The notes under the pieces were generated by a model. That model ran no database searches and was not told the DNA's origin. It saw nothing but the letters and a program-made list of their open reading frames with translations. A DNA stretch of 64,000 nucleotides from an uncultured Verrucomicrobia subdivision 3 bacterium (lineage in GTDB: Bacteria; Verrucomicrobiota; Verrucomicrobiia; Limisphaerales; UBA11358): positions 393-64,392 of the forward strand of contig CAIOUK010000215.1 of the NCBI GenBank assembly GCA_903861445.1, in the 5' to 3' direction. A program made the position numbers and the translations under genes. Of this stretch, positions 2,365 through 63,760 are shown one piece after another. Within the stretch, counting starts at the first letter, position 1. Each line of letters starts with the position of its first letter.

Positions 2365-3921
2365 TCACGCCGCGAGTTTGAGGTGGCTGATGCGGAAAAT
2401 CGCGCCGCGCGGCTCGTTCGGCAGGCACGCGATTTCCCAGCCGTGCAGCAAAACAATTTGCGAAACCACCGCGAGGCCGAGGCCGGTGCCTGTTTGGTTC
2501 GTCGTGAAATAGGGCTTGAAAATTTCCTGCCGTTTGTCCGCCAGCACGCCGGGGCCGTCGTCGCGGATTTCCAGAATCGCCTCCGTGGCGTTCGCGCGAC
2601 GCACTTCGATTTTTATCTGTCCGGCGGTGCCGACCGCGTGCGTGGCGTTGATGAGCAGGTTGAACAGCACTTGCCGCAATAATTGTTCATCGGCTTCAAC
2701 CGCCAGCGGTTCACCGCCGACTTCCACACGTAACTTTTTCTCCTCGATGTCGTAGCCGAGCGTGCGGACGATTTCCGAACAAGCCGCCGTGAGCGCCACC
2801 TTCGTGCGCCGGACTTCGCGCGGCTTGGAATAATTTATGAACTCAGTCAACTGCGCCGTCACCTTGTCGGTTTCGTCCACGATGATTTTTGATTTCTCGC
2901 GCACTTCCGTCGCCGCGTCCGGCAAACGGGCGATTAGCTGCGCCTGCCCGCGAATTAAATTGAGCGGATTGCGCGTTTCGTGCGCGAGACCGGCGGCGGC
3001 GAGGTTCATTTCCTTGAGGTGTGAATTGAGTTCGCTCGCGCGCACGAGGCGGATTTGCAATTCCGCCGTGCGCCGCACATTGCGCCACGCGAGGCCGACG
3101 CCGAGCGCGGAAATGCCGGCGAACAAAACAATGACAGCACGCAGCCACAGATCGCGCGTGCCGATAGCATGGAAATTTTCAGTGGACATCGCCAGCACGA
3201 GGCCGTGCAGCTCGCGCTTGGCGGCGAGCGTCTTGAACTCGGTGTCGGTCATTCCGCGCATCCACGGCGGGCGATGAGTGCCGCCATGCGGGTGTTCGCC
3301 GTCCGGCGGCGGCGCGGGCGCAGCGATTTCTCCGGCAGCATTGGTGGGCGGCGGTAAATTTGTCGGCGGCAATTCCGGCGCGTTGGTGTTCCAAGCGCCG
3401 CGGTCACGCCGGAAAAATTCCCGGCTGCGCTCGGTCCCATTGGTCAACAGGTTGCGAAAGGAAGGCAGCACGACGGTGGCGTTGTTGGTCTCGCCTTCAG
3501 GGGTGACGCTGGCGCCGGCCACCGGCAAAACGAAGGTCACGCCGCCGCCGGACCAGCGTTCGCGGTCGGCGAGCAGTTTGCGGGAAATCAGATTCGTGTC
3601 ACCGGCAATGACGACGGGATCGCCGTCGGTGTTCAGCAGGCCGATGGCGAGCAAGCCGCTGGTGCTGACAAAACTGTTGGTATGACTGCTGACAAGTTCG
3701 TTCAGGACGGGTTCGAGGCGATCCTGAAACAGCGCGCCGCGAAACCGCAGCGCGCGCGTGACGGCGCTTAAGGTGCTGGCGATTTCCCGCGAGCGGTTGC
3801 GGAGGTCGGACTTCGCGGCCTCGACCACGCGCAGATGTTCTTCCACCTGCCAGCCAACGACGAGCAGCCACGCGCCGGCAAGCAGGCCGAAGACCCAGCG
3901 GCGTTGGCGTTGCGTTTCCAT
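2365..3921 (-). CDS. sensor histidine kinase (two TM segments flanking a periplasmic-looking domain)
   Basis: N-terminal TM (VFGLLAGAWLLVVGW), a ~230 aa Pro-rich extracytoplasmic segment and a second TM (AVIVLFAGISALGVGLAW). H-box LAHETRNPLNLI and HATPase boxes NLLINATHA, DDGPGV, GTGLGLAV. Lies 30 nt upstream of the activator gene. Confidence 0.9.
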   Translation of the reverse strand: METQRQRRWVFGLLAGAWLLVVGWQVEEHLRVVEAAKSDLRNRSREIASTLSAVTRALRFRGALFQDRLEPVLNELVSSHTNSFVSTSGLLAIGLLNTDGDPVVIAGDTNLISRKLLADRERWSGGGVTFVLPVAGASVTPEGETNNATVVLPSFRNLLTNGTERSREFFRRDRGAWNTNAPELPPTNLPPPTNAAGEIAAPAPPPDGEHPHGGTHRPPWMRGMTDTEFKTLAAKRELHGLVLAMSTENFHAIGTRDLWLRAVIVLFAGISALGVGLAWRNVRRTAELQIRLVRASELNSHLKEMNLAAAGLAHETRNPLNLIRGQAQLIARLPDAATEVREKSKIIVDETDKVTAQLTEFINYSKPREVRRTKVALTAACSEIVRTLGYDIEEKKLRVEVGGEPLAVEADEQLLRQVLFNLLINATHAVGTAGQIKIEVRRANATEAILEIRDDGPGVLADKRQEIFKPYFTTNQTGTGLGLAVVSQIVLLHGWEIACLPNEPRGAIFRISHLKLAA

Positions 3922-3963: not shown

Positions 3964-5259
3964 CTAATTTTTCTTCACCGGCAGGCGGTCGAGGAAATGG
4001 TTTAGTTCCAGTTCAGGAATGGAATTGGTGATCATCTGCGACTGGCCGGTTTCGTGGCCGGACAAGGCAGCAAGCTGTTCCGGCGCGCGAACGATATGCG
4101 GCGTGAGAAAAATTAGCAGCTCGCTCTTCGTGCTCGACTTGGCGCTGAACTTAAACAACTGGCCAAGCAACGGGATGTCGCCGAGTAGCGGAATTTTACT
4201 GTCGTTGGACGATTTGTCGCTGCCGATGAGTCCGCCGATGACGACCGGCTGGCCGTCCGGCGTCACGACCACGGTGTTGGCGGAACGCTTGTTGATGTTG
4301 GGCGCATACACGGCGGAAGAAATCACGCTGCCGCCTTCAATCACCTGGCCGGGCGTCGAGTTGTCAATGGACGTGATTTGCGGCTGGAGAATCATTTGCA
4401 CCAGACTGTTCGCACCGATGAATGGTGTCACGTCCAGTTGGATGCCGACATTTTGATAACTGCCGTTGATGGTCGGCACCGTCGTGACGCTGTTGCCAAC
4501 GGTGGTGAAGCTGACGCCGCTCGGCAGATAAATGCTCTGGCCGACGACGATTTCCGCCTGCTGGCCGTCGCGCGCGAGGATGGACGGACGCGACAACACC
4601 TGCGCCTTGCCGGCGGTGGCGAGGGCCTGAATGGTTGCCGTGAAATCGTTGCCGGTAAGTTGCGCAAAACCGCCGGTGCCGGTCGCGCCCGCCAACGCCT
4701 GCGGCAGGCCAAAATTGTTGCCCGCGCTCACGCTGGAATAGACCGGCGTGATGCTGGAAGGCACAACTGCCGCCGTAGCCGTGCCTGGATTTGCAACCGA
4801 AAAATTTGTGGCATACCCGGAGAGCTGCGAAAAATTATTATTCAGCCCGGTGTAATTACCCTGCACGCCGATGGCGGATGCCTTGTTGTCCGTCACCTCG
4901 ACAAAGACCACCTTGATGAGCACCTGTGGCACGGGCGCGTCGAGGTTGGCGATGACGTTGCTGATCTGCTGGCTCGTCTCCTCGTCCGCGATGACGACGA
5001 GATTATGCGTCACTGGATCCACGGAAATGACCGCGTTGCCCACCGTGCCGTTGTTGTTGTATTGGCCGGAGGTGGTGCTGCTACTGCTGCTGCGACTGGA
5101 ACTACTCCCGCCGCCAAAGCCGCCAAACCCACCGAAGCCACCAAACCCGCCGCCGCCGAAACCGCTGCCGCCGCGTGACTGCGCGTGAACCATCAGCGCG
5201 GCACCCAGCCAGAGCGCCAGCACGACTCCGTAATTTTTATTGAAAAGTTTTGTCTTCAT
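3964..5259 (-). CDS. secretin, C-terminal half (own signal peptide, partial N3-type repeat, pore-forming secretin domain)
   Basis: GGAG sits 8 nt before ATG 5259. Signal peptide MKTKLFNKNYGVVLALWLGAALMVHAQ, then a G/F/S low-complexity stretch, then AVISVDPVTHNLVVIADEETSQQISNVIANLD (the beta-beta-alpha of an N-type repeat). The canonical secretin C-domain follows, ending SKIPLLGDIPLLGQLFKF...SELLIFLTPHIV. Confidence 0.85.
   Translation of the reverse strand: MKTKLFNKNYGVVLALWLGAALMVHAQSRGGSGFGGGGFGGFGGFGGFGGGSSSSRSSSSSTTSGQYNNNGTVGNAVISVDPVTHNLVVIADEETSQQISNVIANLDAPVPQVLIKVVFVEVTDNKASAIGVQGNYTGLNNNFSQLSGYATNFSVANPGTATAAVVPSSITPVYSSVSAGNNFGLPQALAGATGTGGFAQLTGNDFTATIQALATAGKAQVLSRPSILARDGQQAEIVVGQSIYLPSGVSFTTVGNSVTTVPTINGSYQNVGIQLDVTPFIGANSLVQMILQPQITSIDNSTPGQVIEGGSVISSAVYAPNINKRSANTVVVTPDGQPVVIGGLIGSDKSSNDSKIPLLGDIPLLGQLFKFSAKSSTKSELLIFLTPHIVRAPEQLAALSGHETGQSQMITNSIPELELNHFLDRLPVKKN
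5107..5172 (-). repeat. GFG-type coding microsatellite (GGSGFGGGGFGGFGGFGGFGGG) at the mature N-terminus of the secretin C-half
   Basis: Plus strand reads ccgccaaagccgccaaacccaccgaagccaccaaacccgccgccgccgaaaccgct, reiterated 9-nt GFG units. A poly-Ser run follows (SSSSRSSSSSTTS). Confidence 0.7.
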
Positions 5260-54054: not shown

Positions 54055-54489
54055 GGGAGCATAAGCCTCTGCGCTCGTTCCCCAATGGTTTCAATCATCC
54101 CACAAGGTTTTAGGTTTTTTTCGACTTCAGGAACTATTTGGGGCAGGGGAGGAACTATTTCCAACTCAACTCCAAAATATTAGAAAACTATTATTTTACT
54201 GGAGTTTTTACTAGTGGTGAAAGTTTTGAAACGCACTCGTGAGCACTGCAATTGATCAATGCCTTGTGATATGTTTTACTCTGAAGCGAGCTGGTCGCGG
54301 CTGTTTTTTTCTTGGGAAAACTGCACCGTATCAGGGGTAGTTGTTATGCAAAAAGGTATTGTATTAAGAGGTGTGATTATGGGAAAACCAGTCGACACCA
54401 GCGCAATCATATCATGATTGTCAAAATTGACCGGCTTGCTATGGCTGTTAACCGTTGTCGGGAATCATAATAATAAAACGAAACGAACC

Positions 54490-56913
54490 ATGAAGAAGCT
54501 CATTTGGTATTCACGCGTGCTGGTAATATTCAGTTTAGTGTTGCTAGGCGGAGCCGCCGGCCTTTCAGGTGCTACCGACCAGAAAAAAGCACCACCTGTC
54601 AATCCGGATTTCACTCACGGCGGGCAAAGGGATGATTTTCACGACTGGACGTTGGGGCCGACGGGTTTGCGGGGCTGGATATACGGCAGCAAGTGCGAGA
54701 CGAGCGAGGCGCGCCAAATTCTGGTCACTGCCGTGGCAAAGGGTTCGCCAGCGGATGGCATTTTAACTAATGGGGATGTCATTCTCGGGGTCGGTGGTCA
54801 GCCATTTTCCTGCGATGCCCGCATCAGTTTTGCCAAAGCCATTACCGCTGCTGAAAAAGCGAACTGGTGGAAGGGCGGGAAACTGCAGTTGCTACGCTGG
54901 CGCGCGGGCCAGACTGAAACGGTGGAACTCAAACTCAAGGTCATGGGCACATATAGTGACACCGCGCCGTATGATTGCCCGAAATCAAAAAAGATTTTTG
55001 AGCAGGGCTGCGAGGCGATTGCCAAGCGGGGACTTAACGGTGAATCCATTCCCAATGACATGAACGCGTTGGCGTTGCTGGCCAGCGGCAAGCAGGAATA
55101 CCGGCCCATGCTGGCGGCCTACGCGAAGCAGGTGGCAGAACATCATTTTGATGGTTACCCGAATTGGGATTATGGCTATGCAAATATTTTTCTCGCCGAA
55201 TATGTGCTGACTACGGGTGACCGGTTGGTGTTTGAAGGGTTGAAGCGCATCACCTTGGAGATTGTGCAGAGCCAGAGCGCCGTTGGCACTTGGGGGCATA
55301 ACCCGGCCCGACCGGATGGCAACCTCAACGGCTATGGTTGCATGAACCAGCCGGGGTTGAGTCTGACGATTTCGATGGTGCTGGCGCAGGAGGCTGGGGT
55401 GAATGATCCGGCGCTGGATCGGGCGATAGCGAAGGCGTCCGGCTTCTTGCGCTGGTATGCCAACAAGGGTGCCATTCCTTATGGCGATCATAAGCCGTGG
55501 GACAGCCATGATGATAATGGCAAATCCGGCAGTGCGGCAGTGTTGTTTGATTTGCTGGGCGACCGCGAGGCAGCAGAATTTTTCGCGAAGATGGCTGCCG
55601 CCGGTTACGCCGAGCGCGAGCGCGGGCACACGGGCAATTATTTTAATGTGCTGTGGGCCTTGCCCGGCGTCATCCGTTGCGGACCGCTGACGTCTGGGTC
55701 TTATCTCAAGGAGCAGGCCTGGTATTATGATTTGGCGCGCAGCTGGGATGGTAGCGTTATTTATCAAGGTGAACCACAAGGCGGGGAGGATTTCAGAGAA
55801 TACACCGGGTGGGACTGCACCGGGTCGTATCTGCTGGCCTATGCGGCACCGCAAAAAAGTCTTTATTTGACGGGCAAAAAACCATTTTCGTTTCCCGCGC
55901 TTAATAGCGCTCAAACCGATGAGGTCATTGCGGCGGGTCGTGATTTCACGCCGGCCACCGAGGCGACCTGTTATGATGGACGCTCAACCGAACAGTTGCT
56001 GTCTGGTTTAATGAGCTGGTCGCCGGCCGTGCGACTGCGTTCGGCCCAGTCATTGGCGCAGCGTGAAGGTAACTTTGTGCCGACGCTGCTGAAATTCTTG
56101 GCTAGTCCCAATCAGGACGCCCGCTATGGCGCGTGTTTGGCGCTGGCTAAACTCGGACCAAAGGCCGATCCGGCGGTAGCGCAATTGCGGGCGGCACTCA
56201 AGGATTCCGATCCGTGGGTGCAATACCTTGCCTGTCAGTCCATCGCCGCCCTCAGCCCGGCCGTGCGCGCAACCTGCGTGCCGGATTTATTGAATCTGGC
56301 AATGGCCTCCAATCCCGACGACCCGCGCCATATTGTTCAACGCGCCGTGGGCATGGCATTATTTTCACCTTTTCCTGGCCGGAGCCCCCGGAGCATTCTT
56401 GCAGATTCACTGGTTGGGGTGGATCGCCGTCTGCTCATTCCGGCCATTGAATCCATTTTAAATAACGAAGACGGGGCCGCTCGCGGCAGCGTCGGTGCCA
56501 TTTACGGTAAATTGACCGGCAATGATTTGGCTGTGTTATTGCCATCCATCCTGAAAGCAAGTGAGAAAATGGCACCCAGCGGCGAGATGTTTGCTGAAGG
56601 TATTCGGGTGGAAGGACTGGATTTGTTGTCGCGACTGCATATTCGCGAAGGGATGCCGGTTTGCGTATCGATTAGCGCACCCAAATGGGGGTCGCCCCTC
56701 GCAAAGTGCATGGAATATCTCAAGCGATATGGCGTTCATGCCAAAGAAGTGCTGCCGCAGTTGCGGGAAGTTCGCGGCAAATACGAAGAGCGCCGTGATA
56801 AGGCGGGAGTGGCTCTGATTGACAAGACCATTGCCGAAATTAAGGCCAGCCAGATTGCGCCCCAACTGGTGGGTATTGATGAGTTCACGGCAAAATACAG
56901 GTCGGCGAAGTAA
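54490..56913 (+). CDS. secreted PDZ-like, alpha/alpha-toroid-like and HEAT-repeat protein (paralog 2)
   Basis: ATG 54490 (MKKLIWYSRVLVIFSLVLLGGAAGLSGA). Collinear with 25513-27942 along the whole length. For example VAKGSPADGILTNGDVILGVGGQPF, TAPYDCPKSKKIFEQGC, SAVGTWGHNPARPDGNLNGYG, PYGDHKPWDSHDDNGKSG, GHTGNYFN, and HEAT-like DARYGACLALAKLGPKADPAVAQLRAAL. Confidence 0.8.
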   Translation: MKKLIWYSRVLVIFSLVLLGGAAGLSGATDQKKAPPVNPDFTHGGQRDDFHDWTLGPTGLRGWIYGSKCETSEARQILVTAVAKGSPADGILTNGDVILGVGGQPFSCDARISFAKAITAAEKANWWKGGKLQLLRWRAGQTETVELKLKVMGTYSDTAPYDCPKSKKIFEQGCEAIAKRGLNGESIPNDMNALALLASGKQEYRPMLAAYAKQVAEHHFDGYPNWDYGYANIFLAEYVLTTGDRLVFEGLKRITLEIVQSQSAVGTWGHNPARPDGNLNGYGCMNQPGLSLTISMVLAQEAGVNDPALDRAIAKASGFLRWYANKGAIPYGDHKPWDSHDDNGKSGSAAVLFDLLGDREAAEFFAKMAAAGYAERERGHTGNYFNVLWALPGVIRCGPLTSGSYLKEQAWYYDLARSWDGSVIYQGEPQGGEDFREYTGWDCTGSYLLAYAAPQKSLYLTGKKPFSFPALNSAQTDEVIAAGRDFTPATEATCYDGRSTEQLLSGLMSWSPAVRLRSAQSLAQREGNFVPTLLKFLASPNQDARYGACLALAKLGPKADPAVAQLRAALKDSDPWVQYLACQSIAALSPAVRATCVPDLLNLAMASNPDDPRHIVQRAVGMALFSPFPGRSPRSILADSLVGVDRRLLIPAIESILNNEDGAARGSVGAIYGKLTGNDLAVLLPSILKASEKMAPSGEMFAEGIRVEGLDLLSRLHIREGMPVCVSISAPKWGSPLAKCMEYLKRYGVHAKEVLPQLREVRGKYEERRDKAGVALIDKTIAEIKASQIAPQLVGIDEFTAKYRSAK

Positions 56914-57368
56914 GCTCTAATCCTCAACTCGGCAAGTCCGGTTGCCGCGCCAACGAGTCGTCGGTGGAGTAGGGGGCATGGCCGCCGTGGTTGAGCGTTG
57001 GAACTTGAGCGTCGCTATTTCTATTTTCGCGCGCCGACCCGATTTTCCGATTATGGCGAAGGCACCGTGCGATACTGCTGTTCGCAACAAACTTGGTTGG
57101 TAACAAAATCTGTTTGATGTCCCGCCGACCTCGGCTCACGCTCGCTGCCCACCGGTTAATATGGGAGACCACCTGACTATAATCCCACTCTAAATGAGAA
57201 AAAGGGGGCGCACACCAATTGCAGTGAGTGGGGGCTCCGTGCAGATCAGGGAAACCTGTTGGGCACGCGCCGGCTGTTCTCAGCTAAAAACTGGTATGCC
57301 ACGATGAAGATATCGGGTTCATCAATATAACGAAACAGGGCGAATGCTGGCATTGATTGGCTCCTGAA

Positions 57369-57390
57369 TCTAACCCAAAATTGGGGTAGA
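57369..57390. promoter_or_regulatory. 22-bp near-perfect palindrome TCTAACCCAAAATTGGGGTAGA (operator candidate, copy 1)
   Basis: The arms TCTAACCCAA and TTGGGGTAGA are complementary at 9 of 10 positions around a 2-nt centre. It lies about 230-250 nt upstream of the giant ORF start. A second copy is at 63714-63735. Confidence 0.55.
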
Positions 57391-57544
57391 GTTTAATTGG
57401 GAAATAACTCGCAGCGTGCGATTTGTTGCGGAACATTGAAGTTGTTCTTGTAACTGCCCGGCGGATTAATTTTATTAATCAATAATTTGCGCTGTGGCAG
57501 GAGTAAAGGACTTCCGTTACTTACGCCAACAGAACACGAATCTT

Positions 57545-57572
57545 TACCGTAGCGTTGATACCGTAGCGTTGA
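57545..57572. repeat. perfect 14-bp tandem duplication taccgtagcgttga x2
   Basis: It lies 46 nt upstream of ATG 57618. Confidence 0.9.
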
Positions 57573-57617
57573 AGACGGAAACAGCTGGTTCAAAACTTAT
57601 AAAATTAAGATAAAAAG

Positions 57618-60600
57618 ATGAGGACAGAAATGATCAGAGTAATGGTGAAACGTTTTTCAGTCGCTGTCGCGGCCGGACTGGTGTTCTGTGCGGGTAGTGC
57701 TTTCGCCGATACGATCATCGGCACGGGTGGCACCTATACGATCAACACCACTAACACCACCACCAACGGCACCTTCACGGTGTGGAATGATGCCGGCACG
57801 CTGACGATGTCCAACGGAGCCACCCTGCTGGTTGCGCCCAGCCAGCATCCAGCCACCAATTACAATAACGACGCCATCCTCTTCGCCGGTGGTGCGGGCA
57901 CGAACACCATGAAGTTCAATGACAACGACACCGATTTTCAGATGACCAACTCGGTCAGTTCCACCGCCACCAACGCGCAGACGCTCGCCCTTTATACCGG
58001 CTACCTTGGCAACGGCGACCGCGAAACGGTTACGTTCAGCTCGGGTATCCCGAATGGGACGAGTGGCAATGCTTTGTCACTGGCGGTCTATTTTACTGGC
58101 AATACAGCTGCACAATTAAGTTATGTGAATCTTTATGGGGCCAATACTTTTACTGGCCCAATCACTTTAAAAAAAGTTTCGGGCAGCGGTCTGTTTGGCT
58201 TGACCGTTGGTGGTGAAATTCTTCACCCCAACAGCGCCATCACTGTGATTGGTTCGGGTTCGTTGGGGAACGGAAATTATGCCGGAGCCATTTCCATGGA
58301 TACCAACACATTTTTGAACTTCGCGAGCACGACCGCACAAACGCTCGCCGGCCCCATCTCGGGACCGGGAGCGGTGAAGGTTATCGGCAATGGTGGTTTG
58401 ACTTTGTCCGGCACGAACACTTACACCGGCGGCACCACCATCAGCACGGGTTGCTCGCTGACTTTGGCAACGAATGGCGGATTGAAATTCGTTATTACCG
58501 ATACCAATAACAATACGGTGACGGGCTCCGGCACGGCGTCGGCCACCTTCAATGGCACTTTCACTCTGGATACTTCGGCGGTGACGGTGAACAGCAATTC
58601 CTGGACGTTGGTCAGTGGCATGACTAACAAAATTTATGGCGCCAACTTTGGTTTGACCGGCTTCACCGGTCCCGTGGGCAATCTCTATTCAGGCACGTTT
58701 GGAGGCAGGGCTTGGACGTTCAACAAGACCAACGCGGTATTGCAGATGAATCTACCCGCCCAGATTACGACCTTCAGCACTCTGGGCTATGCCGGCGTCA
58801 TCAACCAGACCAACAAGACGATTTCGTTGACGATTCCCTCCACCAACTCGCTGGCCACGCTGGCACCGACTTACACGCTCACATCGGGAACGTGCAATCA
58901 GCCCAGCGGCTCCGCGCCATCCCCCACTTTTGCGGTGCAAAATCCGGCCATCTACAGCGTGGTGGATGGAACGATCACCAACAACTACACCGTCACCGTC
59001 AATCTATTGGATTTAACTTCCCGGTCGTATTCTGCTTCCTTTTATGTGCTGACCGCAACAAACGGCGCAAACCTGCCGGCTGCAGCCTCGGAAACCAATT
59101 TCCCGATTCTATTGCGGCTGAATGCCAGCAACTTTAATTTCAGTCAGGCCCAGACCAACGGCGCGGACATCCTCTTCACCACCGCCAACAGTAATTCCTT
59201 GCCCTACGAGATCGAGCAGTGGGATGCCGTGAATGGCACGGCCAGCATTTGGGTGCAAATTCCGAGTATCCGGGGCAATACAAACCAGCAACTCCTCATG
59301 TTCTGGGGCAATACCAATGCGATCAGCCAGTCCAGCGGCTCGTCGGTGTTCAACTCAGCCAACGGTTTTGCTTGCGTGCTGCACATGAACGGAACTGCGG
59401 ATTCGACCGGCACGCTGACGCCCACGGACACGGGCACGACGGCGACGAATGGCGCGGTGGGACTGGCGAGGCATTTCAATGGCACCGTGGAGCTGAATTG
59501 CGGAACGAGCATCACTACACTTCCTTCCGGCGGCAACCCGCACACCACCGAAGCTTGGTTCCGAGCCAACGTGTCTCCCGGGACGATGGTGGGGTGGGGA
59601 GTTCAGCAGGGATCGGGCAAAGTGGTCGTGACCGAGGCCAGCCCGCCCCACATTTATGTGGATACCTTTTTTGGCCCCACCTTGAATGGCAATAGCACGC
59701 TATCACTAGCGCAATGGTATCATGTGGCCTATGTTTACACCAACGGAACCGCCAAGGTTTATGTCAATGGTGTGCTGGACGGTTCAATCACGGGCACGCT
59801 GAATATTCCTAATCCGGCGCGAATGGATGTGGGTTTGGGCAGCGCATTTGGTGACGCCGCTTTCATCGGCGATTTGGATGAGGTGCGTATCTCCAGCATG
59901 GCGCGCTCCACCAACTGGCTGTCGCTGGAATATCAAAATCAGAATCCTCTGCAAACGCTGGTGGGCAACCTCGTGCAGCCGGGCACCAACTTTTCTGTTT
60001 CGGCCACGAATGTGACGATGAATGAATCCACCACAACCAATCTGACGGCTCAAGCGGGTGGCGCGGCGAAGGTCTATTGGCTGCTGAAACAAAACGGCCA
60101 GTCAACGGTGCTGGCGGTGGATCAGTTCTTATACACGATTAATGCCGGCCGCGTGACGAGTAACCAATCATTTGTGATTGAATTCAAAGCGGTCTATCCA
60201 GACGGATCGATCCAGACCAATGATATTCCGGTGACGGTGCTGGATACGATTCCCGATCCCATCTTCACGTTAGTCACGTCAACTAATTTGTGGGATGGAC
60301 GTTCGACGTTGACCGTGACGCCGGTGATTTCCAACTGGGCGGCGCTGGTGGTGGCAGGAGCAACCAACCTCAATTACAAATGGAACGTGGCCGGTGTGGC
60401 GGTGACGGCGCAAACGCCGTCCGCGCTGACCGCGCCCGGCGTCTACACGACGACGAATCTAACCTTGTTGCGCGCGCAAGGAAACGGGGTTCTGACCGCG
60501 ACGCTGGCCTTGGATAACGGTGGTGGGGTTAACTCGAATAGTGCCGCTGTGACCGTGCAGCAACCGCTCACCGATGCCTGGGTGGTGCGGACGCCGGGCG

Positions 60601-62501
60601 CCAGTGAAAAGCCGGTAAACAATCAGTTTTATGCGCGGGATAACACCGGCTATGGCACGATTTATTACAACGGCACCATTGGCGGTTCGCCCGACTCGGT
60701 TTTCATGAATATTTATTCCAATGGAGTTCTCTATACCAATATCAGCGTCGTTCCTGCCGGCGGCGTTTATGCTTTGAGTGCGCGGATTCCCTCGGGCTTG
60801 ATTACTTACAGCGTGCAGTTCAGCTCCGTGACCGCTGGCGTGACCAATTTACTGGACACGGAAACCAATCTGGTTTGCGGCGATGCCTACATTATTGAAG
60901 GCCAGTCCAATGCCGAGTCGAAAAACCATTACGGCACGAATAATAACTACTCCATCAACACCTATACCAATCCGTGGATCCGAACCTTTGGCACCCAGGG
61001 CACCAGTGGAGCCACCAATGGCGGGTGGGGCTACGCCGTCGGCGATCCCGGCTCCGGACTTTACGAAATTGGCATCTGGGGTATGTGTCTGGCCAGCAAT
61101 CTGCAGGCGACCTATCAGATTCCCATCTGCATCATGAACGGGGCAGTCGGCGGCACGCTGATTTCCGCGCATCAGGCCAATCCCACCAACCATTACGACG
61201 CGGGTGGCGGCACCTATTCGATTTACGCCAACTTGGTGACCCGCGTGGCGGCGGCCAATCTGACGCATGGCATCCGGGGCGTGCTCTGGCATCAGGGTGA
61301 AAACGACCAGACAGCGGCGGATCCAACTGGCAATTATGACTACGTCAACTACCAGTCCTACTTCATGAATATGTCCGGCGCGTGGAAGACAGATTTCCCG
61401 AACATCCAGCATTATTATATCTTCCAAATCTATCCCAATGCCTGCTCCATCGGTGGCGGATACTGGAGCGATATGATTCGCGAGGTGCAGCGCAACTTAC
61501 CCGGCCTGTATTCCAATATGAGCATCATGTCCACGCTGGCCCAGCCCACAGGCAGCCAGTGTCACTTCTATTCCCCCGACTATTGCCAGTTGGCCTATAA
61601 TATGTTCCCGCTGGTTGCGCGTGACAATTACGGCTTAGTCCCAACGAATGATATCACGGTGCCCAATATCATCAGCGCCGCCTTTACTACCACTAATCGC
61701 AATCAAATTGCGCTGGTGTTCAACCAGAACATGACTTGGAACAACGCCGTCACGGCCAACTTCTATCTCGACCGTCTCGCCGGCTGGGTCGCCGCCGGCA
61801 GTGCCAGCAACAACGTCATCACGCTGACCTTGAGCGGTTCTTCAACGAACCAGACGATTGATTATGTGGTGGATCAATATTGGACTTCAACCAGTGTGAC
61901 CAACTTTTCTGCCATGCTCACCGGCTCCAACGGCCTTGCTGCGCTTACGTTTTATGCGGTGCCGATTGCGCCGCCACCGGCGGTCGCCTCCGCGTCTGCG
62001 CCGCTGATTAACGGCCTGCTGCCGGCCACTGGCCGCACCAATGGCGGAACGGTGGTGACCATCACCGGCACCAACTTTTTGAGCGGTGCGAGTGTGCTGT
62101 TCGGCGGCAACAACGCCACCGGCGTCAGTGTTATCAGTTCAAACCAAATCACGGCGTCGACTCCGGCCAACAGCCCCGGCGCGGTGAATGTTGCGGTGAT
62201 CAACACCAACGGTCTCGCGGTGACGAATTTGAATGCGTTCACCTATATGCTGCCGCCGGTGCAAGTGCCCATTGCCGGCACCGCCGTGCAGCTCGTCGGC
62301 ACCAACCTGATGCTGGTTTGGGCGGGGGCGACCAATCAGTCTTGTGTGCTGCTCATGGCCACGAACATATTGCAACCGCGCAACACTTGGATACCGGTGG
62401 CCACCAATCCCGTCGGGCCGAGTGGAGTTTCGACGAACAGTATTCCCGTCAACACCAGCGGGCCGCAGCGCTATTATCTGCTCTCCATTCCATACAATTG
62501 A
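57618..62501 (+). CDS. giant secreted multidomain protein: beta-strand-repeat (PATR-like) region, DUF2341/LamG module, Ig-like region, SASA/SGNH-type carbohydrate esterase domain, IPT/TIG domain
   Basis: Signal peptide MVKRFSVAVAAGLVFCAGSAFA. ATG 57630 has a GAGGA 6 nt upstream and may be the true start. GT-rich beta repeats (LTLSGTNTYTGGTTIS). NFPILLRLNASNFNFSQAQTNGADILFTT...YEIEQWD (DUF2341-like), then a LamG-like stretch (WYHVAYVYTNGTAKVYVNGVLDG...GDLDEVRIS). Esterase-like CGDAYIIEGQSNAE ... GVLWHQGENDQ. IPT/TIG GRTNGGTVVTITGTNFLSGASVLFGG. Confidence 0.85.
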   Translation: MRTEMIRVMVKRFSVAVAAGLVFCAGSAFADTIIGTGGTYTINTTNTTTNGTFTVWNDAGTLTMSNGATLLVAPSQHPATNYNNDAILFAGGAGTNTMKFNDNDTDFQMTNSVSSTATNAQTLALYTGYLGNGDRETVTFSSGIPNGTSGNALSLAVYFTGNTAAQLSYVNLYGANTFTGPITLKKVSGSGLFGLTVGGEILHPNSAITVIGSGSLGNGNYAGAISMDTNTFLNFASTTAQTLAGPISGPGAVKVIGNGGLTLSGTNTYTGGTTISTGCSLTLATNGGLKFVITDTNNNTVTGSGTASATFNGTFTLDTSAVTVNSNSWTLVSGMTNKIYGANFGLTGFTGPVGNLYSGTFGGRAWTFNKTNAVLQMNLPAQITTFSTLGYAGVINQTNKTISLTIPSTNSLATLAPTYTLTSGTCNQPSGSAPSPTFAVQNPAIYSVVDGTITNNYTVTVNLLDLTSRSYSASFYVLTATNGANLPAAASETNFPILLRLNASNFNFSQAQTNGADILFTTANSNSLPYEIEQWDAVNGTASIWVQIPSIRGNTNQQLLMFWGNTNAISQSSGSSVFNSANGFACVLHMNGTADSTGTLTPTDTGTTATNGAVGLARHFNGTVELNCGTSITTLPSGGNPHTTEAWFRANVSPGTMVGWGVQQGSGKVVVTEASPPHIYVDTFFGPTLNGNSTLSLAQWYHVAYVYTNGTAKVYVNGVLDGSITGTLNIPNPARMDVGLGSAFGDAAFIGDLDEVRISSMARSTNWLSLEYQNQNPLQTLVGNLVQPGTNFSVSATNVTMNESTTTNLTAQAGGAAKVYWLLKQNGQSTVLAVDQFLYTINAGRVTSNQSFVIEFKAVYPDGSIQTNDIPVTVLDTIPDPIFTLVTSTNLWDGRSTLTVTPVISNWAALVVAGATNLNYKWNVAGVAVTAQTPSALTAPGVYTTTNLTLLRAQGNGVLTATLALDNGGGVNSNSAAVTVQQPLTDAWVVRTPGASEKPVNNQFYARDNTGYGTIYYNGTIGGSPDSVFMNIYSNGVLYTNISVVPAGGVYALSARIPSGLITYSVQFSSVTAGVTNLLDTETNLVCGDAYIIEGQSNAESKNHYGTNNNYSINTYTNPWIRTFGTQGTSGATNGGWGYAVGDPGSGLYEIGIWGMCLASNLQATYQIPICIMNGAVGGTLISAHQANPTNHYDAGGGTYSIYANLVTRVAAANLTHGIRGVLWHQGENDQTAADPTGNYDYVNYQSYFMNMSGAWKTDFPNIQHYYIFQIYPNACSIGGGYWSDMIREVQRNLPGLYSNMSIMSTLAQPTGSQCHFYSPDYCQLAYNMFPLVARDNYGLVPTNDITVPNIISAAFTTTNRNQIALVFNQNMTWNNAVTANFYLDRLAGWVAAGSASNNVITLTLSGSSTNQTIDYVVDQYWTSTSVTNFSAMLTGSNGLAALTFYAVPIAPPPAVASASAPLINGLLPATGRTNGGTVVTITGTNFLSGASVLFGGNNATGVSVISSNQITASTPANSPGAVNVAVINTNGLAVTNLNAFTYMLPPVQVPIAGTAVQLVGTNLMLVWAGATNQSCVLLMATNILQPRNTWIPVATNPVGPSGVSTNSIPVNTSGPQRYYLLSIPYN

Positions 62502-62536
62502 GCCGTCGGTGACAGTCCGCCGGCCGTTTGGACAAC

Positions 62537-62564
62537 AGCCTGACTTTTACAGCCTGACTTTTAC
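62537..62564. repeat. perfect 14-bp tandem duplication agcctgacttttac x2
   Basis: It lies 36 nt downstream of the giant ORF stop. The unit is two heptads of the ctgactt family seen in other spacers. Confidence 0.9.
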
Positions 62565-62568
62565 GAAT

Positions 62569-62610
62569 AACCGCACCGTTCTGCTGCAGATCAATCTAAC
62601 GGTCGCGGTT
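62569..62610. terminator. long hairpin between the convergent giant ORF and regulator gene (possible bidirectional terminator)
   Basis: aaccgcaccgtt (62569-62580) pairs with aacggtcgcggtt (62598-62610): 12 bp with one bulged C and a 17-nt loop. There is no clear U-tract on the plus strand. Confidence 0.4.
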
Positions 62611-62634
62611 AGCAACAACCCAGCGATTTCATAT

Positions 62635-63705
62635 TCATTTAGCAACGGGCGGCGGCGCGACCGTGCCTCCGGGGATAAATTTGGCAGGGAAAGCGTGCTG
62701 GCGGAGATCGCGTTTGCCTCGACTTACATGGTTCGCCCAGCGGAGGATGCACCGAACTAATTGACTGAAATCCTGCTGCATGCGGGTGACCGTGGGCACA
62801 CACCACTCAAAAATCGGTTCGTGTCCCAGAAAAATCAATGAGACATCCTGGGGCACGCGCAGTCCCCGTGTCGCGAGAAAATGATTCGTCGCCGCGAACA
62901 ACTCCGGTTCATCCACCAGCAACCCAGTCGGCGCGGTGACTTGAAACAATTTGGCAAGGCATTTTTGAAAGCCTGGCACGCTTTCTTCCCAATCCGGCAG
63001 CACATAAGGCGAAGCCGGGATGCCGTAGGCGGCCAGCGCGGTCAGAAATGCTGTGGGCAGCTGGCCCATGATCGGCTGCCGATGTTGGCGGCGGACCAGC
63101 ATGACGATTCGCCGGTGACCCAGTTTTAGCAGTGATTGGGTGCCTTCTTCGATCGCCGCCATACAGTCTGGGCCGGCGGCAGCGATGGGTTGGCCGCGCC
63201 AGCCCCCAAATAGCGCAAAAGCGGGCGTTTTTTGCTGGGCGAACCATGTGATCACTTCCACTGAACCGCACGCCACCACCCACGCATCTGCCTTGGTGCG
63301 GGCTACCATCTTGGCGATGCGACCCACGTCCATATTCAATTCCAGCAAAGTTTTTGGGGTGTGAAATGAGACGTGTCCTGCCTCCGCCAGCCGATGTTGC
63401 AAGTCCACCACATACGTCCAGGAACGATCTGCCGGTGTCCACACCAGCAAGGCCACCCGCATCGGGGAACCCCCCCCGCCTTTCAACGGAACAATGCGGC
63501 GACTTCGGCGTAAGCCTTGGCTGAGCAACAATCCTTCCTGTTCGAGTTGCCTCATCGCCGCATCCACTGTCTTACGGTTTATCCCCAGTTCCACCGCCAA
63601 CCGATCCGCCCCAGGTATGGTATCTTGCCAACGCCCCCGGATCAAATCGGCGCGCAAATGGGCGGCGACCTGGTTGGCGGACGAAAGCAGAGCAAATGAT
63701 GGCAT
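62635..63705 (-). CDS. transcriptional regulator with a GntR-type HTH and a LacI/periplasmic-binding-protein-type sugar-binding domain
   Basis: ATG 63705 (the ORF-track TTG is at 63711). HTH region IPGADRLAVELGINRKTVDAAMRQLEQEGLL, then a ~270 aa PBP-like domain (RVALLVW..., VVACGSVEV..., RIVMLV..., PTGLLVDEPELF..., VPQDVSLIFLG). Confidence 0.75.
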   Translation of the reverse strand: MPSFALLSSANQVAAHLRADLIRGRWQDTIPGADRLAVELGINRKTVDAAMRQLEQEGLLLSQGLRRSRRIVPLKGGGGSPMRVALLVWTPADRSWTYVVDLQHRLAEAGHVSFHTPKTLLELNMDVGRIAKMVARTKADAWVVACGSVEVITWFAQQKTPAFALFGGWRGQPIAAAGPDCMAAIEEGTQSLLKLGHRRIVMLVRRQHRQPIMGQLPTAFLTALAAYGIPASPYVLPDWEESVPGFQKCLAKLFQVTAPTGLLVDEPELFAATNHFLATRGLRVPQDVSLIFLGHEPIFEWCVPTVTRMQQDFSQLVRCILRWANHVSRGKRDLRQHAFPAKFIPGGTVAPPPVAK

Positions 63706-63713
63706 GGTCAAAA

Positions 63714-63735
63714 TCTAGCCCAAGATTGGGGTAGA
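63714..63735. promoter_or_regulatory. 22-bp near-perfect palindrome TCTAGCCCAAGATTGGGGTAGA (operator candidate, copy 2)
   Basis: It begins 9 nt upstream of the regulator's ATG, in the divergent spacer, and matches copy 1 at 20 of 22 positions. Confidence 0.55.
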
Positions 63736-63760
63736 GCACAAATAATTTATCATTCTTGGC

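Follow-up and report, generated by a model that had tools for sequence, protein, structure and literature searches.

A promoter-embedded palindrome as the probable operator of a chimeric GntR/LacI-type regulator in an uncultured Verrucomicrobia bacterium

Two near-identical 22-bp palindromes are present in a 64,000-nucleotide (nt) stretch of DNA (the window) from an uncultured Verrucomicrobia subdivision 3 bacterium (contig CAIOUK010000215.1 of assembly GCA_903861445.1). One of them (copy 2, 63714-63735) lies directly in front of a gene for a regulator that joins a GntR-type winged helix-turn-helix (HTH) to a LacI-type effector domain, and is very probably that regulator's autoregulatory operator: palindromes recur at the same position in many members of the regulator family, copy 2 is embedded in the predicted promoter, and palindromes co-vary with the HTH among relatives. 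The other (copy 1, 57369-57390) lies between the relic of a paralogous regulator gene and the gene for a giant protein of 1627 amino acids (aa), and resembles an intergenic operator retained from a divergent regulator/giant pair that once existed.

Results

Two near-identical palindromes in the window

Copy 1 (TCTAACCCAAAATTGGGGTAGA) and copy 2 (TCTAGCCCAAGATTGGGGTAGA) are identical at 20 of 22 positions, and each has 10-nt arms, complementary at 9 of 10 positions, around a 2-nt centre. The lone arm mismatch falls at the same position in both copies, and the differences between them are confined to the centre and to this position, where neither copy is complementary to begin with. One half-site of copy 1 is perfect and equal to that of copy 2, while its other half-site differs solely where copy 2 also deviates. 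Scanning the window with the 22-mer, allowing up to 3 mismatches, returned these 2 sites, compared to 0 matches (0 expected) in 100 dinucleotide-preserving shuffles of the window. Scans of the window with the relaxed core CCCAANNTTGGG and with half-sites detected no additional site, either full or paired.

Copy 2 begins 9 nt from the A of the regulator ATG (63705, minus strand), with 8 nt in between. Copy 1 ends 227 nt before the ATG of the giant open reading frame (ORF) at 57618 and 239 nt before an alternative ATG at 57630. The giant ORF (plus strand) and the regulator gene (minus strand) are convergent, with a gap of 133 nt. A preliminary description of the window, made from the letters alone, had reported both 22-mers with their 20/22 match, the near-complementary arms around a 2-nt centre, the absence of the motif elsewhere in the window, the 9-nt distance of copy 2 from the regulator start codon, a distance of about 240 nt between copy 1 and the giant ORF, and the convergence of the two genes. 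All of this agrees with our measurements, with coordinates and identity exact on re-checking. The same description considered the flanks of the two copies to be unrelated, which is right for only one side: the -35-side flanks cannot be aligned, although the palindrome itself is 91% identical, whereas ATGCCAnCATTyGCyCTGyTT follows each copy on its regulator-proximal side, with 17 of 21 positions identical.

Dispersed intergenic repeats, such as repetitive extragenic palindromes (REP) or miniature inverted-repeat transposable elements (MITE), are present many times in a genome, at sites that are unrelated to one another and frequently lie at the 3' ends of genes. Such a repeat, which the preliminary description had named among the findings that would overturn its reading, was looked for both in the window and in one genome per species from 185,579 species (596 gigabases, Gb), a collection from which the source species is apparently missing. 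The TCTANCCCAANNTTGGGNTAGA scan of these reference genomes gave 9 single matches in unrelated phyla, approximately the chance expectation for 18 specified bases in 596 Gb. With this chance-level result and just 2 sites in 64 kb, both of them at 5' regions of the regulator type, a dispersed repeat is ruled out.

Copy 2 lies within the predicted promoter of a GntR/LacI-type regulator gene

The regulator gene (62635-63705, minus strand) encodes a protein of 356 aa (exact protein recorded as P0001). Residues 10-63 match the GntR winged HTH family PF00392 of Pfam (36.8 bits versus a cut-off of 27), and the periplasmic-binding-like effector domain matches PF13377 (60.8 bits versus a cut-off of 26.5) and also PF00532. 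Residues approximately 170-350 match the structures of LacI, PurR and CcpA, with best E values in the Protein Data Bank (PDB) of 4e-11 to 1e-9, and in the same type of search the family profile matches HTH structures of the GntR/YtrA/HutC type. By these domain matches the predicted protein is a member of the GntR family and has the GntR-HTH/LacI-effector architecture; protein searches place it in a very large family. The sugar responsiveness ascribed to it in the preliminary description is a domain-based prediction that derives solely from the LacI-type effector domain. We found no paper on this regulator family or on leaderless promoters in Verrucomicrobia.

Upstream of the gene we recognise a candidate promoter (63712-63741, minus strand), read from the sequence together with the family consensus described below. 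It consists of a -35-like TTGTGC (63736-63741) and a -10-like TAGATT (63712-63717, both on the minus strand). Copy 2 fills the spacer between these elements and overlaps the -10-like element, and the start codon follows approximately 7 nt past the -10. With this spacing, the regulator mRNA is probably leaderless.

Palindromes at the same position recur across the regulator family

The orthologs of the regulator in L012 (86% identity) and L014-L018 (77%) have a palindrome at the equivalent place, ending 8-9 nt before the ATG. These palindromes have diverged in sequence (CTACCCCGAATTTGGGGGTAGA and CTACCCTCACTTAGAGTGTAGA), and TTGACC stands directly before each of them. In L012 (4218-14160) the ortholog lies beside MtaB/B12-binding methyltransferase genes, and a cluster near it comprises rhaM, an SSF transporter, two alpha-L-fucosidases and a sugar-phosphate isomerase-like gene. 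Such neighbours may point to an effector of the fucose or rhamnose type.

A metagenome scan with the family alignment gave 481 confirmed matches in all, among them 80 loci with 45-55% identity to the regulator (L019-L098). In most of these 80, a palindrome peculiar to the locus stands immediately upstream of the start codon. For counting we de-duplicated the set to 71 unique loci and accepted palindromes with a score of at least 5 that end 4-12 nt from the start. Such a palindrome is present in 28 of the 71 loci, compared to 0 of 71 at the same offset in a control region (-120 to -81) of the same genes. A pentamer resembling a -35 element (TTGAC, TCGAC and similar) has its peak at -36, and in 45 of the 71 loci it starts within -45 to -33; the start-proximal arm contains a conserved nAGGTT/TAGATT at approximately -13 to -8, including a conserved GTT at approximately -10 to -8. 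No Shine-Dalgarno motif is visible in the consensus of the 71 loci. The layout is shared by L019-L098 and the window (63706-63741): a -35-like TTGACA at approximately -36, a paralog-specific palindrome in the spacer, and a start codon approximately 7 nt past the -10-like element. It suggests leaderless regulator mRNAs in Verrucomicrobia, and the simplest reading would be a sigma-70-type promoter that has the operator as its spacer and a transcript starting at, or next to, the start codon.

If the palindromes are bound by the proteins encoded next to them, site and DNA-binding domain should change together. A partial Mantel test on the 35 loci with clear palindromes, using operator half-site distances, gave a correlation between operator distance and HTH distance of r = 0.31 when controlling for the divergence of the effector domain (permutation p approximately 2e-4), and a null result for the converse partial correlation (r = -0.05, p = 0.75). 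This co-variation runs in the direction expected of a protein and its cognate site. On visual comparison, sites of the CTAC type are associated with PGxDRLA...QGxRRxR in the HTH, ACCTGGCC sites with NNK, AACCTCACC sites with NSK and AACCATTCCC sites with NHK.

Two points count against the operator reading: shared ancestry can inflate the results of partial Mantel tests, and a third ortholog locus, L099, keeps just the start-proximal half of the palindrome. Even so, we consider it very probable that copy 2 is the autoregulatory operator of the regulator, and this is the better-supported half of our interpretation. The preliminary description had proposed such a role; the position of palindromes in orthologs and in relatives with 45-55% identity and the co-variation with the HTH lend it strong support on a comparative basis.

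Copy 1 adjoins the relic of a paralogous regulator gene

The sequence to the left of copy 1 holds the relic of a paralogous GntR/PBP (periplasmic-binding protein) regulator gene (57068-57368, minus strand), with a frameshift, stop codons and a missing HTH; the preliminary description had overlooked it. Using the intact regulator as query, tblastn aligned residues 264-286 and 300-350 to 57326-57068 with 43% identity (E = 1.85e-12). The relic also matches family residues approximately 155-166 or, alternatively, the N-terminal 7 codons. It is 50-73% identical to P0015/P0017, versus 38-44% to the clade of the intact regulator, and on these identities we take it to be an old paralog and not a fresh copy. 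A recent duplication of the intact regulator is ruled out, since the C-terminal part of the relic is nearer to other paralogs. We also considered a paralog split in two, with its N-terminal half to the right of copy 2; no similarity to the family was found there, which excludes this arrangement.

The piece of the relic that touches copy 1 reads FRSQSMPAFALF, with its ATG 15 nt from the palindrome. It agrees at 17 of 21 positions with the N-terminal codons of the regulator clade and at 19 of 21 with the codons of the family-invariant internal PMPAFALF, while its spacer TAGATTCAGG resembles the spacers of orthologs. This 5' piece is ambiguous and may be either a true N-terminus or the internal PAFALF motif. 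Either way, copy 1 would sit where a regulator gene once began or was truncated. The public gene calls contain an ORF of 35 aa at 57246-57353 (minus strand; MPAFALFRYIDEPDIF...), with a good AGGAG ribosome-binding site 7 nt upstream, which corresponds to the front of the relic.

Within 54418-57617, a DUF6288/HEAT gene precedes the giant gene, and the relic lies in the 704-nt gap between the two. In L102 (1-6001), a DUF6288-containing giant precedes a giant homolog with 53% identity, with a gap of 59 nt. The relic and palindrome region may be an insertion between two formerly adjacent genes. One further locus (L010) is 100% identical to the window and so uninformative about constraint at the palindromes.

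Copy 1 in relation to the giant gene

The giant ORF (57618-62501, plus strand), the candidate target of copy 1, encodes a protein of 1627 aa, which shortens to 1623 aa if it begins at 57630, the ATG used in the public gene calls. Its N-terminus resembles a signal peptide, and the protein contains PATR-like repeats together with DUF2341, LamG, TIG and a SASA carbohydrate esterase domain; Verrucomicrobia homologs bear the names DUF2341 protein or autotransporter-associated beta strand protein. P0004, P0006 and P0007, which are close orthologs of the regulator, are encoded divergently from giant PATR proteins, and the giant neighbour of P0006 (3,081 aa) has PATR and SASA domains. In the two divergent loci with DNA sequence, the palindrome lies 208 nt from the start of the giant gene in L014, compared to the 227-239 nt at copy 1, and approximately 250 nt in L099, an estimate based on the right half-site (4157-4166) and the giant start (3907). 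Second operator copies were not found in the ortholog loci L012, L014 and L018, nor further half-sites in the intergenic regions of L014 and L099. The giants beside the orthologous regulators are homologous to the window giant only in the PATR-repeat regions and are therefore of the same protein class but not orthologs.

Because copy 1 adjoins a regulator relic, lies at a similar distance from a giant gene and has a counterpart in the divergent regulator/giant orthologs, it looks like the intergenic operator of a former divergent pair that has been preserved. Given that copy 1 is nearly identical to copy 2, the surviving regulator should bind the former if it binds the latter. Whether copy 1 actually modulates the giant gene is a separate question, on which we regard the chances as evenly balanced. 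The preliminary description had proposed control of the giant gene by the regulator. In favour of this are the near-identical site, the divergent ortholog pairs and the similar spacing; the dead regulator next to copy 1, the distance of approximately 230 nt, the lack of a recognisable promoter beside it and the lack of conservation in a related genome speak against it.

An alternative, which we consider somewhat unlikely, is that copy 2 is an operator while copy 1 is just a fossil of the destroyed regulator gene or a rearrangement junction, without effect on an independently transcribed giant gene. The observations that weigh against control through copy 1 argue for this fossil reading, as does the decayed gene itself. 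Beside copy 1 we found no sigma-70-like rightward promoter, and between copy 1 and the giant gene neither a promoter-like site nor any extra half-sites. When the spacer between copy 1 and the giant gene is compared with the intergenic regions of L014 and L099, the palindrome region alone aligns. The pairing is also not conserved in a related genome: assembly GCA_021778915.1 holds orthologs of both the regulator (77%, L017) and the giant (78%, L101), but within 3.7 kb upstream of the giant ortholog that genome's own palindrome is absent and there is no regulator nearby. Four other contexts of the giant family likewise have no such neighbouring regulator, so that giants of this family usually stand without one. 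Furthermore, the 20/22 identity of the palindromes is not statistically distinguishable from the 17/21 identity of the adjoining relic codons, and selective constraint on the palindrome can therefore not be demonstrated.

Second copies of a locus's own palindrome within 4 kb on either side were found for just 1 of 24 distinct palindromes, which also counts against a second functional site. In this one locus (L032), the promoter is present in three copies together with the palindrome and the first codons, MPEG... (381-403, 3765-3787 and approximately 3972-3994), and two of the three modules are followed by truncated ORFs. Promoter-operator modules can therefore be duplicated and stranded, as the fossil reading supposes for copy 1. 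Against a mere fossil stand the -35-side flank, which is unalignable although the palindrome is 91% identical, the geometry of copy 1, which fits that of living divergent regulator/giant pairs, and the pairing of three close regulator orthologs with giant PATR genes. These leave a preserved operator as our preferred interpretation of copy 1.

Two further features concern the giant gene and its relatives. The region approximately 45-70 nt upstream of its start codon contains a perfect tandem duplication (57545-57572) of the 14-nt unit TACCGTAGCGTTGA, which could be the binding site of another factor or the result of recent slippage. In L101 (936-8613), three genes whose products have prepilin-type N-terminal methylation domains stand directly upstream of the giant ortholog, which is followed by a gene of more than 989 aa, a layout that hints at an operon linking giants to pseudopilin-like proteins.

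Palindromes as segment ends or RNA hairpins

Since the two copies bracket exactly the giant gene and the regulator gene (57369-63735), they might, instead of being operators, mark the ends of a 6.4-kb segment of two genes that is rearranged or mobile, or serve as its recombination sites. The position of copy 1 at the truncation point of the paralog relic would fit such an event, as would the inserted appearance of the relic region (a gap of 704 nt here versus 59 nt in L102). However, the segment and the genes beside it include no recombinase or transposase, the other half of a split paralog is missing to the right of copy 2, and the motif does not exceed chance in other genomes. The promoter-embedded palindromes found throughout the family explain copy 2 without mobility, and we hold a mobile segment to be very improbable.

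That the palindromes act as RNA hairpins, i.e., as terminators or stability elements, is hardly credible: an 8-bp interrupted stem is possible in each copy and TTTT follows copy 2 on the minus strand, but such stems would have little stability (-8.5 to -11.4 kcal/mol, with z-scores from -0.8 to -2.4), and among relatives the arms change yet remain symmetrical as DNA, with the site still associated with -35/-10-like elements. Intrinsic terminators are stable G+C-rich hairpins followed by a T-run at the 3' end of a gene. The copies are at gene 5' ends (copy 2 just 8 nt before a start codon), a terminator scan calls neither of them and neither matches Rfam; together with the weakness of the hairpins, this rules out a terminator or structured RNA.

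Discussion

We propose that the GntR-HTH/LacI-type regulator has the 22-bp palindrome as its operator, and that copy 1 is the same operator surviving from an earlier divergent arrangement. Taken as a whole, this model seems to us moderately probable; its two halves differ in strength, as set out above. A dimer of the regulator on copy 2 would block RNA polymerase and so cause negative autoregulation, and a small molecule, probably a sugar, bound in the LacI-type domain would relieve the repression. In the earlier layout, a regulator of the copy-1 operator class would have been encoded divergently from the giant PATR/DUF2341/SASA gene. That regulator gene would then have been destroyed, leaving a relic that is fused to, or belongs to, a paralog, and the intact regulator downstream, having the same specificity, could occupy copy 1 in trans.

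The closest described counterpart is AraR of Bacillus subtilis, which combines a GntR winged HTH with a LacI/GalR-type effector domain, binds palindromic operators, is released by a sugar, and has a single box at its own promoter for autoregulation and further boxes at target promoters (PMC1950556). The window regulator has the same chimeric domain build and is AraR-like in architecture; by analogy, it probably is in logic as well. The ara box is the 16-bp ATTTGTACGTACAAAT, and the GntR signature is (N)x-GT-N(0-15)-AC-(N)x (PMC1950556). By contrast, the window operator is 22 bp long (TCTACCCCAA-NN-TTGGGGTAGA), has AC...GT order instead of GT...AC, is unlike the ara box, and is placed in the spacer of what seems to be a leaderless promoter. 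The organisms differ as well, AraR being from Firmicutes and the window regulator from Verrucomicrobia. No AraR chains occur among the best 60 of 86 PDB matches at E <= 1, with either the single sequence or the family profile as query, and the NCBIfam AraR model does not match the window regulator. The GntR/LacI-type fusion in the window may be independent of AraR or very diverged from it.

With the LacI/GalR proteins (LacI, PurR, CcpA) the window regulator shares a homologous effector domain. LacI/GalR repressors are dimeric, bind palindromic operators, are often autoregulated and control adjacent carbohydrate genes. Unlike them, the window regulator has a GntR winged helix in place of the LacI HTH and hinge helix, and its operator is unrelated to LacI-type sites. 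As for gene layout, TetR-tetA is a divergent repressor/target pair with a shared intergenic operator. Close orthologs of the window regulator whose genes diverge from a giant gene, the palindrome lying in the intergenic region between them, resemble this pair, and copy 1 keeps the layout. The window itself departs from it, given that the divergent regulator copy is dead, the working regulator is convergent and downstream of its target, and the operator lies more than 200 nt from the target start codon with no evident promoter overlap.

Verrucomicrobia are major degraders of complex polysaccharides; to our knowledge, how they regulate transcription has hardly been studied. A single repressor that has two sites is a conventional finding, since bacterial gene switches of this kind are ordinary. 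If the proposal is correct, it would define a specific operator for one regulator out of a family that has expanded hugely. It would also provide a rule for finding the operators of the others, namely a palindrome between -35 and -10 that ends approximately 7 nt before a probably leaderless start codon. Such a rule would make the regulons of giant PATR/DUF2341/SASA surface proteins and of glycan-utilisation genes predictable from sequence, and as a family-wide means of locating operators it is a more useful by-product than the two-site claim itself.

A bolder and more speculative idea, which at present we think rather improbable, is that each paralog has a private palindrome in a leaderless promoter, and that such modules are copied or retained apart from their regulator gene (the three modules of L032 and the orphaned copy 1 would be examples), rewiring genes for giant glycan-processing surface proteins to a surviving regulator. 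If this were true, the window would capture a regulatory takeover after the death of a paralog, and the co-variation between HTH and operator would amount to a readable recognition code for the reconstruction of regulons across the phylum.

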